Positions 2,659 to 13,558 of a stretch of 24,224 bases of DNA are shown here, one piece after another. The DNA lies in the IMG/VR virus record IMGVR_UViG_2548876940_000013, positions 1-24,224 of that record. One strand, given 5' to 3'. How positions within the stretch are numbered: position 1 is the first letter of the stretch; each line of letters opens with the position of its first letter. Source of the DNA: a virus. Lineage: Duplodnaviria; Heunggongvirae; Uroviricota; Caudoviricetes. The notes below the pieces were generated by a model. The model saw only the letters and a program-made list of their open reading frames with translations. It made no database searches and was not told where the DNA came from. Position numbers and translations under genes: made by a program.

Positions 2659-2985
2659 TTACTCCTTAGAGCCACCAAACTTATTACCGATTACTCTCAT
2701 TGCAGCCCCACGAATAGCATCGACCCCGATCAGCCCAACGCCGCCACCAATGGCAACAGAAAGAGATTTAGGCCATCCGACATACTCAAGAGCGGATGCA
2801 AAAGTCAGCGTCAGAGCACCACAGAGCAAAATCTCGAGCGTTTTTCGTTTCCAGCCACCACCACCGCCAAAATAGGCAATGCGCAAGCCAGCCATAACGA
2901 TCGACATAATCACTGCGCCCAGCGGTGTGTCTCCACGCCACCAGCTCTGGAACAACTCCAGCCAGGTATTTGGGTTATGAGGCAT
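2659..2985 (-). CDS. Holin (three-TM type)
   Basis: 108 aa with three hydrophobic helices and a charged C-terminus; immediately upstream of R with its stop 1 nt before the R start. Confidence 0.75.
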   Translation of the reverse strand: MPHNPNTWLELFQSWWRGDTPLGAVIMSIVMAGLRIAYFGGGGGWKRKTLEILLCGALTLTFASALEYVGWPKSLSVAIGGGVGLIGVDAIRGAAMRVIGNKFGGSKE

Positions 2986-3124
2986 TTGTAGTTATCTCTC
3001 ACCTCGCTGATACAGCAGGTGCAAATTGAGGGAACATCATGTACAGCAAATTAGAAGCGGAAACGTCAAAGAAGCCGAACCAATGGATAACTGCGAAATA
3101 GACCAGGACCAACGAATCCCCAGC

Positions 3125-10535: not shown

Positions 10536-11222
10536 GTGAAAACACTGGCAGAACGATTAAAGATAGGTAGAGAGAAAGCTGGCATGAGCCAAGCTCAACT
10601 AGCTGAAAAAATTGGACTTTCACAACAATCTGTAGCCAAAATAGAGAATGGCGAAACTCTACAACCGCGCAAAATTAAAGAAATTGCAAAAGTTTTAGGT
10701 GTATCACAAAAGTGGTTACAACTTGGTATTGAAGACAACGCATCCATACCTGATCTTGTTGTAAAAGAAGCAGAAAGCACCGCATTAGACCCCGATATTT
10801 TCGTAAACATTCCTGTTTTAGATGTCGAGTTATCGGCAGGTAACGGATGTCTGGCTGAAATAGTTGAATCAGCTATTGACTGGTTTCCGTTAAGAAGAGC
10901 AGATTTGAGAAAATCTGGCGTATGTGCATCTAATGCCAAGATCGTACAAATATGGGGGAACAGTTTATTACCGGTTCTCAATAATGGAGATCTTGTTGCC
11001 GTTGATATTTCTCAAACCGTTCCTATTCGTGATGGCGATCTTTATGCCGTACGAGATGGTGTATTGCTAAGGGTTAAAATACTTATCAACTTACCTGACG
11101 GTGGCTTGATTCTTAGAAGCTTCAACAAAGATGAGTACCCAGATGAAATACTCACCTTTGAAGATAGACGAGCCAGAATTCATGTTATAGGTAGGGTATT
11201 CTGGTCATCGCGAACTTGGTAA
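10536..11222 (+). CDS. CI-like prophage repressor (XRE-type HTH plus S24 LexA-like peptidase domain)
   Basis: N-terminal HTH (MSQAQLAEKIGLSQQSVAKIENGE) and C-terminal S24 fold with Ser (GNSLLPV) and Lys (LRVKIL) in the expected places. GTG start with SD agagaggg. Confidence 0.85.
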   Translation: MKTLAERLKIGREKAGMSQAQLAEKIGLSQQSVAKIENGETLQPRKIKEIAKVLGVSQKWLQLGIEDNASIPDLVVKEAESTALDPDIFVNIPVLDVELSAGNGCLAEIVESAIDWFPLRRADLRKSGVCASNAKIVQIWGNSLLPVLNNGDLVAVDISQTVPIRDGDLYAVRDGVLLRVKILINLPDGGLILRSFNKDEYPDEILTFEDRRARIHVIGRVFWSSRTW

Positions 11223-12095
11223 TGCATCGAAAAGCATTTCTTCAGAAATAATTTTAAGTTTTGCACCATTATCATCCCTATAAGATATAGCCTTTTCGAT
11301 CTTCCTTCCGTGACTAGAGAATTTCCAATCACGGGAGGAAAGCGTCCCAATTACTAAAAAATCCAACTTTTGAGTAATTCCACTACTGATGTTCCCACCA
11401 GCATTTTTAATCAAATTTTCAACTACGGCTCTCTTTCCTGCAACAAAAGTGCCTGTAAGACAATAGGTTTTACCCTCTAACTCTATCGAAGCCCCTACAT
11501 CAATAGGCAGCCTGGTCGCCAAACCATCCACCACCCCACTTTCCAAGTCACATCCTGTGAAGTCTACTAATGCCTTATGTAGAGTTAAACTCTCATCTTC
11601 AGTAATAACACCATCTTTAAGAATTTCCTTTACAAGTGCATAAAGTTTTTTTCCTGGGTAGTTGTTCTTCAAAGCTCCATTTTGCTCAAGCCACCAATTA
11701 AGATATCTTATTTCTTCTTGAGTTAAGTTCCGATCAGCAATTAATCCTTTACATAGTCCATTAAGTAAATGGACATCTACATCCTTGGAGTAAAAATCAA
11801 TTTCAGGGATATCAAGAATTTCCCTCTGTATTTGGAGAAGACTATTTTTAAGGTCATCACGTTCTTCTGATGTGATTATTCCATCCACAAGAATATCCGA
11901 CACCCGTGCAGATAGACTTTTTATAACTCCATTATTGATAATCTGCTTTGCTTCAAGTAACCATGTATCTAAGTAAAGAACCTCCTCTTCACGGACAACT
12001 CCATCTGCAATGATTCCATCAATGATGCTAATCAAGTTAGCAAATAACTTGTCCCGGTTCTGTGTGTAATTAAAAGCGTAAAGCGCGTCTTCCAT
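11205..12095 (-). CDS. TerB-like-repeat / BRCT-domain protein in the immunity region (candidate exclusion/defence factor)
   Basis: C-terminal BRCT signature GKTYCLTGTFVAGKRAVVENLIKNAGGNISSGITQKLDFLVIGT...KLKIISEEMLFDAL, as in the LigA BRCT. N-terminus has four repeats of about 38 aa with the motif [IL]xDG[IV][IV]TxEE. ATG at 12095 with SD aaggagg; track start is GTG 12125. Confidence 0.7.
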   Translation of the reverse strand: MEDALYAFNYTQNRDKLFANLISIIDGIIADGVVREEEVLYLDTWLLEAKQIINNGVIKSLSARVSDILVDGIITSEERDDLKNSLLQIQREILDIPEIDFYSKDVDVHLLNGLCKGLIADRNLTQEEIRYLNWWLEQNGALKNNYPGKKLYALVKEILKDGVITEDESLTLHKALVDFTGCDLESGVVDGLATRLPIDVGASIELEGKTYCLTGTFVAGKRAVVENLIKNAGGNISSGITQKLDFLVIGTLSSRDWKFSSHGRKIEKAISYRDDNGAKLKIISEEMLFDALPSSR

Positions 12096-12300
12096 ACAAC
12101 CTCCTTTTTTTGATAATCCTTGCACTCCTTGGCTACTCGTTCAAACCACATAAAGTTGTTGACAACATTCAAAACCACAACTAAATTACAACTTAAAGGT
12201 GTTAAGACAACGAACAGGCAGGACGCCCACGAAGTAGCCGCTTGGGGCATATGAAGTCCAGGATGATTCGTTGAGTCATGTTGTGCCACTAGGCACTCAT
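12096..12300. promoter_or_regulatory. OL-like operator/promoter region (candidate pL driving + strand early-left genes, with a divergent promoter for the BRCT gene)
   Basis: Contains the near-palindrome aaagttgttgacaac and the motif acaacttaaaggtgtt, which match the units in the cro/cI spacer. Confidence 0.4.
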
Positions 12301-12319
12301 GTTAAAGCAGGTGTATGAA

Positions 12320-12595
12320 ATGAAAGTCCAGATTTTAAACAATAACTGTGAAGTCGTTTGGTCATACGACATAGCCGCCCCTGTAGATCAGAGCGGCGAT
12401 AGCTGGACCAATGGGAAACATCAGATTATGGCTGGAGTTGTGTTCTCTTTACGCCGTGCTTTGGAACAGGCTGAAGTATTTCCATCAGACCCTGAATGGA
12501 AATGGCCTTTTTCTATTTGTCCAAATTCGGAGAGCACATTTCAGAAAATTGGTCAGAAAGTCGCACTCGAAGAGCATCAGCCAACTGTTTCCTGA
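12320..12595 (+). CDS. Hypothetical early-left protein
   Basis: ATG at 12320 with SD aggtg; the track start at 12299 has no SD. The 3-prime end overlaps a - strand ORF, so one of the two may be spurious. Confidence 0.4.
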   Translation: MKVQILNNNCEVVWSYDIAAPVDQSGDSWTNGKHQIMAGVVFSLRRALEQAEVFPSDPEWKWPFSICPNSESTFQKIGQKVALEEHQPTVS

Positions 12596-12758
12596 TTTTT
12601 TCAGGTAACTCGTCGGCATCGCAGAAACAACAACGCTCGATCATGTTGAAAGCCGATTCGTAGAACTGTTTCTGCTGAGTGTCGCTGAGACAGGAAAAGA
12701 GCGACGTTACGATGATTTTATTAATTGCATTATCAAATTCTTTTTCATCAAAAGTCAT
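12513..12758 (-). CDS. Hypothetical small protein
   Basis: 81-aa ORF with SD aaggaaa before the ATG. Product looks protein-like (acidic, Cys motif CCFCDADE). Confidence 0.35.
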   Translation of the reverse strand: MTFDEKEFDNAINKIIVTSLFSCLSDTQQKQFYESAFNMIERCCFCDADELPEKIRKQLADALRVRLSDQFSEMCSPNLDK

Positions 12759-13011
12759 TTGATTTTCCTTTTATGTATACGGGCTTAAAAGGATACCACC
12801 GAGCCTGAAGTGGTGAAAAGACAGGCACATAACAGCTAAGTATTTTCAACCAAAGAGAATCCTTAGCGTTGTGGTGAATGCGGCTCAGCGCACGCGGGTT
12901 AAGGTTGAGGCTGACAGTCGACCTTCTGTGGATACCCACCCGCCTGGTGTGCAACCTTCGCCAGGCACCGGGAGGCACCCGGCACCACAACTTTATGCTG
13001 TGTGTAGTCTT

Positions 13012-13068
13012 GGCGGTACCAGCTTGTACCCTTGCTTCCGGCTGGTACCGTCCTTTTTACAAAACAGA
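13012..13068 (+). terminator. Strong hairpin with a downstream T-run (candidate early-left terminator/attenuator)
   Basis: 10-bp stem cggtaccagc / gctggtaccg around a 17-nt loop, followed by tcc-ttttt. Lies in a GC-rich stretch with no convincing ORF. Confidence 0.4.
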
Positions 13069-13195
13069 GAAGAGCATCACCGGACGACGGGCTCATAACC
13101 CAATCCATCCGGGCGGCGGCCACCACAAGTGTTCTTCTCTGTTTTGTGGAGAAACTAATAGGCCTTGCAGGGTCGATATGATGAGGAGCAGCAAA

Positions 13196-13558
13196 ATGGC
13201 TAGCGAACGCAGTACTGATGTACAGGCATTTATCGGGGAGCTGGACGGCGGCGTATTTGAAACCAAAATCGGCGCAGTTCTCAGTGAAGTCGCTTCCGGT
13301 GTGATGAACACGAAAACCAAAGGTAAGGTCTCGCTCAACCTGGAAATTGAACCATTTGATGAGAACCGTGTGAAAATCAAACACAAACTCTCATATGTTC
13401 GCCCGACTAACCGCGGGAAAATTTCCGAAGAAGACACTACCGAAACGCCGATGTATGTCAATCGCGGTGGTCGCCTGACTATTCTGCAGGAAGACCAGGG
13501 ACAATTACTGACTCTTGCCGGTGAACCTGACGGAAAACTCCGCGCAGCAGGTCGTTAA
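13196..13558 (+). CDS. YfdP-like phage protein (120 aa)
   Basis: ATG at 13196 with SD gaggag. The longer track ORF from 12878 runs through the structured leader and is not credible. Size and position upstream of YfdQ/YfdR-like genes match the CPS-53 arrangement as recalled. Confidence 0.55.
   Translation: MASERSTDVQAFIGELDGGVFETKIGAVLSEVASGVMNTKTKGKVSLNLEIEPFDENRVKIKHKLSYVRPTNRGKISEEDTTETPMYVNRGGRLTILQEDQGQLLTLAGEPDGKLRAAGR

Follow-up and report, generated by a model that had tools for sequence, protein, structure and literature searches.

An untranslated RNA leader with an STnc100-like pseudoknotted core in the early-left operon of an SfV-like Escherichia coli prophage

What is made from a stretch of an early phage operon in which no convincing gene can be seen? 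The question is raised by positions 12760-13195 of the DNA analysed here (the window, 24,224 nt, IMG/VR record IMGVR_UViG_2548876940_000013), which is part of an SfV/e14-like lambdoid prophage of Escherichia coli. An earlier note on this DNA placed the region in the early-left operon, ahead of a yfdP-like gene, and offered an attenuator, a nut-like antitermination site or a small RNA as its role. We found that the region forms the leader of the early-left (PL) operon, an untranslated RNA of several domains situated between the probable PL promoter and yfdP. Its 5' two-thirds forms one conserved pseudoknotted domain, which the earlier note had missed and which is common to many phages, the Qin prophage of E. 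coli K-12 and phage P1. Within the prophage small RNA family STnc100/PasD, this core represents a variant ('class II') of early operons.

A non-coding, structured region

The region is non-coding and specifies a structured RNA on the + strand. Its GC content is indeed high, at 0.55-0.565 over 12800-13099 compared to 0.39-0.44 just upstream. The only open reading frames (ORFs) across it, 12748-12990(-), 12871-13098(+), 12878-13558(+), 12899-13384(-), 13032-13181(+) and 13093-13461(-), are mutually antisense and rich in Arg, Pro and Gly, and the earlier view that none is a credible gene agrees with the variation found in nature. Among 20 distinct natural variants, including that of phage ST64B (74% identity), 1-nt insertions and deletions as well as a 20-nt insertion are tolerated within 12871-13181, and these break the frame. 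Substitutions in the same interval are distributed 35/44/39 over the three codon positions, without periodicity. No conserved protein gene was found by homology. A Pfam search with the 12871-13098 ORF gave no match, and PHROG matches came only from other short ORFs laid over the same DNA (PHROG 33599 for the 13032-13181 ORF, and PHROG 36251). In the two E. coli genomes inspected, PGAP/RefSeq places a pseudogene, 'hypothetical protein, frameshifted', over the RNA (L002 13172-13482 and L004 16324-16634, corresponding to 12871-13181 of the window). Additionally, the leader as far as a conserved motif at 13146-55 (GTGGAGAAAC) precedes unrelated genes at other loci, and it therefore behaves like a portable non-coding module. 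A protein-coding role was rejected because indels break the frame, codon periodicity is missing and Pfam gives no match.

Folding confirmed that 12846-13196 is more structured than its dinucleotide-preserving shuffles: the minimum free energy was -140 kcal/mol as compared to -118 +/- 5.5 kcal/mol (z = -4.0), and 1 of 100 shuffles was as low. The hairpin with a T-run pointed out earlier has fully complementary arms (13014-13023/13041-13050, 100%), and its stem extends to 12 bp. The long-range inverted repeat downstream is longer than had been described, with 18 nt at 13059-13076/13130-13147 that are 94% complementary. A third inverted repeat had been overlooked: GTTGTGGTG at 12868-76 pairs with CACCACAAC at 12983-91, and these 9 bp close the main domain.

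The placement in the early-left operon, on the + strand between the probable PL and yfdP, was also borne out. Outside the region itself, a promoter-like site with 10 of 12 consensus matches, TTGACA-17-TAAATT, lies at 12159-12187 on the + strand. The palindromes GTTGTTGACAAC and ACAACTAAATTACAACTT overlap it (12150-12200), and it is probably a repressor-controlled PL. No other + strand promoter-like site was found in 12187-13196, neither before the core nor between the terminator and yfdP, and the region is thus most simply part of a transcript that would start at PL.

The core domain and the STnc100 family

The core spans ~124 nt (12868-12991, + strand) and is identified by its match to the Rfam STnc100 model and by covariation. 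It begins with the 9-bp helix P1 (12868-76/12983-91), which is followed by a two-nucleotide joint, AA, and by P2 (12879-82/12893-96) with a conserved loop at 12883-92. The P3 region (12897-12941) comes next, then P4 (12942-49/12959-66), a spacer A at 12967, and P5 (12968-82, CCGGG-AGGCA-CCCGG), all on the + strand. Relatives were sought in two scans, one of viral contigs with the invariant hairpin and the other of a single genome per species with the 5' motif. These scans gave more than 120 loci, and the real ones all belong to the Enterobacterales (Escherichia, Shigella, Klebsiella, Raoultella, Enterobacter, Pantoea and Mixta). Pattern matches in Pseudomonas, Burkholderia and similar genera outside this order were discarded as chance matches, as the rest of the fold is missing there.

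The fold was parsed on 127 distinct sequences. In these, the inner six pairs of P1 are 95-100% canonical, with U-A/C-G and G-C/A-U exchanges, and the joint between P1 and P2 has 2-3 nt (AA or AAU). P2 is a 4-5-bp stem with the conserved loop CUNNGCGNA, and the P3 region is variable. P4 has 6-8 bp, with four to six pair types at each position and one A before P5, which runs directly into the 3' strand of P1. Where the search pattern had left P5 free, its stem covaries as well (CCUGG/CCAGG in Qin, UCGGG/CCCGA in Enterobacter). G-U is the most frequent pair at one position of P4, which fits the + strand.

In a MAFFT alignment of 63 representatives, the named pairs were 81% paired compared to 37-44% with slid partners, and the covariation exceeded that of 500 out of 500 shuffles. 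A covariance model (R1) was built from this alignment; it recovers 128 copies in 100 loci and scores 78 bits on the window, whose sequence is in the R1 seed. In the model-fitted alignment of the 128 matches, 87.4% of cells pair as compared to 41-51% with slid partners, and covariation was 0.274 compared to 0.125, a value reached by 0 of 500 shuffles. This second alignment leans towards structure because it is fitted to the model, and the MAFFT result serves as the independent check. The helices of the core covary across 124 distinct sequences, and in the relatives those of two downstream hairpins, hairpin 2 and H3, do so as well. R1 found no second copy of the core in the late region of the window.

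A pseudoknot completes the domain. On the + strand of the window (12901-12958), AAGGTTG at 12901-07 pairs with CAACCTT at 12952-58 in the P4 loop (AAGGUUG/CAACCUU in the RNA). In every subfamily the segment directly after P2 is complementary to the P4 loop, with a different sequence each time. A selection from many more such pairs comprises AGACUGACAAA/UUUGUCAGUCU in the Pantoea type, UGGUUAU/AUAACCA in phage P1, CAGUUAA/UUAACUG in Qin, and AUCAGCG/UGCUGGU, CUGGUG/CACCGG and CCAGUC/GACUGG in late-operon types. A pseudoknot of at least 6 bp was possible in 76% of 63 distinct P4 loops, compared to 8% of shuffled loops and 16% of loops swapped between sequences, many of which are related. The Rfam STnc100 consensus line printed with the match contains no pseudoknot. 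In the window and the Pantoea types the 5' strand also has an alternative local partner, a direct repeat of the loop sequence (CGACCTT at 12919-25 in the window). ST64B keeps the partner in the P4 loop and has lost the local one.

At curated thresholds, Rfam reported no family for the whole window. Below threshold, the scan that the earlier note had called for gave a full-length match: STnc100 (RF02076, model positions 1-206) aligns to 12846-13061 with 42.4 bits (E 1.1e-7 over 901 nt) as compared to a cut-off of 47 and to 69-131 bits for class I relatives. Model positions 31-147 likewise match below threshold in ST64B, where the match lies between cI and the yfdP homologue, in P1 and in K-12 Qin. 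The window shares with STnc100/PasD the multi-helix junction at 12868-12991, which contains the closing helix UGGUG/CACCA, the GCG loop hairpin of P2, variable hairpins and the CCGGGAGGCACCCGG hairpin abutting the closing helix. It also shares a linker and a Rho-independent terminator after the core (stem 13012-23/13041-52 and T-run), and a location in a prophage on the sense strand of a phage operon. Apart from its score, it differs from STnc100 in its P2 stem, which is UGCG/CGCG and not CCCC/GGGG, in its DicF-like 3' module, in the lack of a directly upstream promoter, and in lying between the repressor gene and yfdP rather than in the late ('moron') region after Q.

The relatives fall into two classes. 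Class I has the P2 stem CCCC/GGGG and is the Rfam STnc100 proper. In many copies a TTGACA-17-TAAATT promoter ends ~7 nt before P1, and the core is followed by a variable single-stranded linker of 15-60 nt and a strong terminator. Holin genes come next in many loci, and in two annotated Klebsiella phages the element lies directly after the gene for the Q antiterminator. The promoter at P1, the linker with terminator and the placement after Q indicate that class I is a short terminated leader of the late operon. Lambda 6S RNA and StxS of Stx phages are short terminated leader transcripts that are reused as small RNAs, and class I shares their PR'-tR' arrangement, with a start at a promoter just after Q and an end at a nearby terminator before the lysis genes. 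The window copy, in contrast, lies in the early operon, and by eye its fold is unrelated to that of lambda 6S RNA. Some class I copies form tandem arrays and many lie beside tRNA genes. In the arrays, which are found beside tRNA genes, three to five units, each provided with its own terminator, repeat with a period of ~255 nt (L026 342-1038; L035 1723-3286; L074 4377-5462 and 8377-8518). In Klebsiella phage ST11-VIM1phi8.1, an isrJ match of 57 bits was observed between gene Q and the STnc100 copy (L127 3866-3944).

Class II has the P2 stem UGCG/CGCG and includes the window, ST64B, Qin, P1 and the Pantoea and Enterobacter types, all of which score below the Rfam cut-off. Its members mostly have no promoter of their own, two Enterobacter loci having given weak promoter-like matches. 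They lie within early operons, where the core is followed either by a start codon 25-150 nt on (dicB, tciA or small ORFs) or, as in the window, by a terminator.

STnc100 copies are expressed in strain EDL933, one of them on a Northern blot, and class I RNAs accumulate as terminated species of ~160-210 nt (PMC5331693). One copy is located 75 nt after stx2 (PMC12370729), and the late 'moron' site is occupied by small RNAs bound to Hfq (PMC4104026). The PasD RNAs, which were found by Hfq RIL-seq, are related to STnc100 (bioRxiv 10.64898/2026.05.13.724894). A stable Hfq-associated transcript is known only for class I copies and PasD (PMC5331693; PMC4104026; bioRxiv 10.64898/2026.05.13.724894). In this literature (PMC5331693, PMC12370729, PMC4104026 and bioRxiv 10.64898/2026.05.13.724894) no function is assigned to the core.

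Terminator, downstream hairpins and the relationship to DicF

Directly after the core, a single-stranded linker, TTTATGCTGTGTGTAGTCTT (12992-13011, + strand), is a candidate for both a seed and an Hfq-binding stretch. Its motif TGCTGTGT, also written UGCUGUGU, is kept in other terminator-bearing members of class II. The linker leads into a Rho-independent terminator (13012-13058, + strand) with a 12-bp stem at 13012-23/13041-52, a 17-nt loop and a T-run at 13054-58, within CTTTTTA at 13053-59. The hairpin has a predicted energy of -23 kcal/mol. Pairwise alignment with K-12 dicF showed a resemblance to DicF (UUGGCGGUAYCAGYUU) in its 5' arm and in part of its loop.

Hairpin 2 follows (13059-13147, + strand, -38 kcal/mol predicted), with an outer stem of 17-19 bp around two small hairpins. 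It shows compensatory changes in ST64B and in L169: the outer stem has a G-C to A-U exchange in ST64B, wobble exchanges are seen elsewhere, and an inner hairpin varies from GCGG/CCGC through GCUG/CAGC to CUGUG/CACAG. The conserved motif GTGGAGAAAC (13146-13155, + strand) is single-stranded and marks the 3' edge of the portable module; the sequence beyond it varies among loci with different genes. Hairpin H3 (13161-13174, + strand) lies just 5' of the yfdP Shine-Dalgarno sequence GAGGAG (13183-88). Its sequence changes wholly while the pairing is kept, from CGACC/GGTCG in the window to GGCGG/CCGCC in ST64B and GCCCC/GGGGC in the relative L007.

In lambda, the PL leader contains nutL and an RNase III-sensitive hairpin before N. 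By analogy, hairpin 2 is long enough to be a candidate RNase III site. Both leaders lie between PL and the first downstream gene and have a long duplex just before a ribosome-binding site, whereas the present leader has no boxA or boxB, no N gene is found, and its RNase III site is putative.

Directly 5' of the core, hairpin H0 (12835-12867, + strand) pairs GCTAAGTATTTTC with GAGAATCCTTAGC at 85% complementarity. ST64B has a hairpin of other sequence at this position (AAGAGTT...AACTCTT).

The resemblance to DicF extends to the setting. As in dicBF, the terminated module of the window is embedded in a repressor-controlled early prophage operon with its 3' end at a terminator, and in Qin, dicF adjoins a class II core. 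However, the Rfam DicF model (RF00039) gave only 19.4 bits on 12999-13053 (E 0.17) compared to a cut-off of 48 and to 76.7 bits for K-12 dicF, and the single-stranded 5' part differs. The order differs as well: in the window the core comes first and the DicF-like hairpin second, and in Qin this is reversed. Repression of ftsZ in the manner of DicF was unsupported, as the ftsZ start region ranked only 19th out of 35 start regions for the window module in duplex prediction; this test is a weak one, since true DicF itself ranked only 3rd and is barely separated by the method.

In K-12 Qin (L129, NC_000913 1646500-1651500, at 2953-3084) the class II core begins immediately after dicF and ends ~27 nt before the dicB start codon, and its P1 helix is extended (AAUUUUGUGAUG/CAUCACAAAAUU). 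According to PMC5069750, which cites Faubladier 1990, the 3' end of the 72-nt DicF is made by RNase III. This reported end maps to approximately L129 2954, within the extended P1. In two studies that map RNase III sites, the dicF-dicB site is not given with coordinates. The possibility that K-12 dicF has a degenerate core upstream of it was considered and rejected, as only the DicF part aligns there and R1 detects none. Phage P1 (L005, NC_005856) has a class II core at 2500-2627, in the part of the ban operon between upl and tciA, and the tciA start codon follows after ~35 nt. This operon also has an annotated 'dicF-like region' and three tRNA genes. An evident DicF-like hairpin also follows the core of the relative L078. 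A further observation concerns phage mEp460 (L172 2354-2492), where a degenerate core scores 19 bits with R1 and has an enlarged P5 loop (AGAUCAGCA). Downstream of it stand the same DicF-like terminator and the same hairpin 2 that the window has, and the deposited annotation lays minus-strand ORFs there.

Possible workings of the leader and its surroundings

Of the three roles suggested earlier, the attenuator and the small RNA are reasonable; the terminator, with no promoter between it and yfdP, is what makes the attenuator so. The nut-like site was rejected: no boxA (8-nt consensus, CGCUCUUA or UGCUCUUUA) was found in 12760-13195 with up to one mismatch, and the ORF list contains no arginine-rich, N-like ORF between the probable PL and the core. 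We think that the leader is probably an attenuator that also yields a stable small RNA, with read-through expressing yfdPQR-xis-int, because a terminator follows the core, no promoter lies between this terminator and yfdP, and class I relatives accumulate as terminated RNAs. Transcripts from the probable PL would cross the small ORF (SfV orf33) that lies before the region and would then fold into the pseudoknotted core. Most of them would probably stop at the DicF-related terminator. The terminated RNA, ~190 nt from the start of P1 to the U tail, would comprise a structured 5' body, a single-stranded linker that could pair with targets in trans, and the terminator hairpin with its U tail. Polymerases that read through would make hairpin 2, a ~19-bp duplex that may be cut by RNase III, and then H3 with the yfdP ribosome-binding site, and so express yfdPQR-xis-int. 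Such a scheme would parallel DicF of Qin, which the corresponding operon yields through termination together with processing by RNase III and by RNase E, a longer read-through species not having been detected (bioRxiv 10.1101/2023.04.14.536235).

Several points weigh against the attenuator with a stable RNA. Unlike the class I copies it has no promoter of its own, and a discrete small RNA would therefore need processing or would be the 3' end of a ~865-nt transcript. The core also occurs without a terminator in Qin, P1 and several Pantoea/Enterobacter loci, and since these copies precede start codons by 25-150 nt the core must have some role other than carrying a seed. A pseudoknotted domain of 124 nt with near-invariant loops exceeds what a small RNA needs. 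The efficiency of the terminator is uncertain because of its 17-nt loop and only five U, and the model leaves unexplained how enough read-through is obtained for xis and int.

The core could instead be a module for processing or stability, a compact nuclease-resistant fold, although we regard this as rather unlikely. Its closing helix or the nearby long hairpin would be cut by RNase III, or it would be recognised by RNase P in a tRNA-like manner, so that the segments of a polycistronic phage transcript are separated and the downstream RNA is left with a protective structured 5' end. The positions of the core, beside tRNA genes and between genes of long phage operons, are consistent with this, and so are the length of the hairpin 2 duplex and the reported 3' end of DicF within the extended P1 of Qin. 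The helices follow one another in an order resembling that of the cloverleaf of a class II tRNA, P5 being stacked directly on P1, and both kinds of partner, a seed with a terminator or a ribosome-binding site with an ORF, would gain from a protective 5' body. However, a tRNA or tmRNA was rejected: ARAGORN recognised none, and no match to the Rfam tRNA clan was obtained at E up to 10. The P1 of the window, with only 9 bp, is too short for RNase III, cleavage at the window element is putative, and simple protection does not explain the near-invariant loops.

It is unlikely that the core is a cis-acting sensor, that is, a riboswitch-like aptamer or an operator for an RNA-binding protein that gates termination or translation downstream. 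A multi-helix junction with a pseudoknot, near-invariant loops (AGGCA, CUNNGCGNA) and covarying stems is typical of RNAs that bind a ligand or a protein, and the core is followed by an intrinsic terminator or by a start codon 25-150 nt on. The two partners of the pseudoknot strand in the window and Pantoea types are mutually exclusive, but Qin lacks the alternative local helix, and in ST64B this helix is degraded. Class I copies stand alone with their own promoter and terminator, and some are arranged in tandem arrays of three or more without ORFs between them, unlike a cis-regulator. The downstream genes are mutually unrelated. A riboswitch expression platform was considered too, and an unquantified comparison by eye of the printed sequences of ~50 relatives showed no complementarity of the terminator to the 3' strand of P1.

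Very unlikely, in our view, is a put-like RNA that binds RNA polymerase during transcription and replaces N, the polymerase becoming resistant to later terminators as well as to that at 13012-13058. In phage HK022, put RNA alone can confer antitermination (PMC9378689). As there, the window has a structured RNA in the early-operon leader of a phage without N, upstream of terminators, including one that xis-int expression must pass; no N-like ORF or boxA was found near the probable PL, and the same core opens late operons within ~7 nt of the presumed transcript start. The two RNAs nevertheless differ. Put is ~70 nt long with two stems compared to ~124 nt and five helices in the core (PMC9378689). 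When the HK022 PL and PR regions were read, no similarity to putL, putR or the put consensus was seen, and the R1 scan of HK022 gave no match, for which reasons a put RNA was rejected. Moreover, the relatives of the window element terminate right after the core, and since class I RNAs accumulate in terminated form (PMC5331693) the core does not stop its own terminator from acting. The Qin copy is found downstream of the dicF terminator, and both it and the P1 copy stand directly before an ORF.

A protein-coding role, whether for a small protein or for a stretch that extends YfdP N-terminally from ATG 12878, is extremely improbable: the frame 12878-13558 is open and in frame with yfdP, PGAP calls a hypothetical protein and PHROG 33599 matches the 13032-13181 ORF, but natural indels of 1 and 20 nt break the frame, substitutions follow no codon periodicity, Pfam has no match, PGAP itself calls its feature frameshifted, paired positions covary as RNA, and the same DNA stands ahead of unrelated genes.

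We consider the finding real: a below-threshold, early-operon variant of a known prophage small RNA family, to which a DicF-related terminator and a structured 5' untranslated region are joined. The kind of element is known and the attenuation proposed for it is ordinary. The conserved pseudoknotted core stands at the starts of late operons, in early-left leaders and, in E. coli K-12 and P1, directly 5' of dicB and tciA, respectively. We tentatively suggest that the ~120-nt core, with its five helices and near-invariant loops, could be more than the body of a small RNA and represent an unrecognised class of functional RNA domain of enterobacterial temperate phages, which would bind a partner and so control the fate of phage transcripts; the partner may be a small molecule or a protein, such as RNA polymerase or a ribonuclease.

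The identity of the RNA links three things that have hitherto been treated apart, namely STnc100/PasD of the late region, the K-12 DicF locus and the long untranslated early leaders of the SfV/ST64B type, all of which share one covarying pseudoknotted domain. Current annotation passes over it: Rfam at its curated threshold misses class II, and PGAP lays a pseudogene over the RNA in both E. coli genomes inspected. The interval 12700-13250 is 98.4% identical in phage SfV and is matched in whole or in part in 2865 of 5426 complete E. coli genomes, that is, in about half of them, with at least 80% covered in 1361 of those. The K-12 copy between dicF and dicB makes the role of the core directly testable. 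If the core does control termination, processing or stability, this would explain early-left regulation, xis and int included, in phages without N.

The leader is followed by yfdP (13196-13558, + strand, ATG at 13196), the first gene after it, which encodes 120 aa and corresponds to PGAP yfdP (363 nt) and phrog_204. The genes yfdQ, yfdR, xis and int come next in this order. In K-12, the leader is absent upstream of the yfdP of CPS-53 (L174 5390-5520), where a different sequence with tandem repeats of ~20 nt (CAGATTTTGACGGGT...) is found. Upstream of the region, the convergent ORFs 12299-12595 (+) and 12513-12758 (-) overlap by 83 nt and match phrog_3195 and phrog_3311, respectively, which are PHROGs without an assigned function. 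The interval 12210-12275, just 3' of the probable PL, is homologous to the post-PL leader of ST64B. In place of the orf33 of the window, ST64B (L006, 2700-2950 and 407-608) has a second GC-rich structured stretch that ends in a terminator and for which Rfam gave no match, and on the far side of its immunity region it has clear C4, IsrK and c4-a1b1 matches.

In the window, the cI-like repressor gene lies at 10536-11222, with the cro side and Q (PF06530) leftward of it. Between the repressor gene and the probable PL, a 306-aa ORF on the minus strand (11205-12125) has a C-terminal BRCT domain, an unusual cargo gene for an immunity region.

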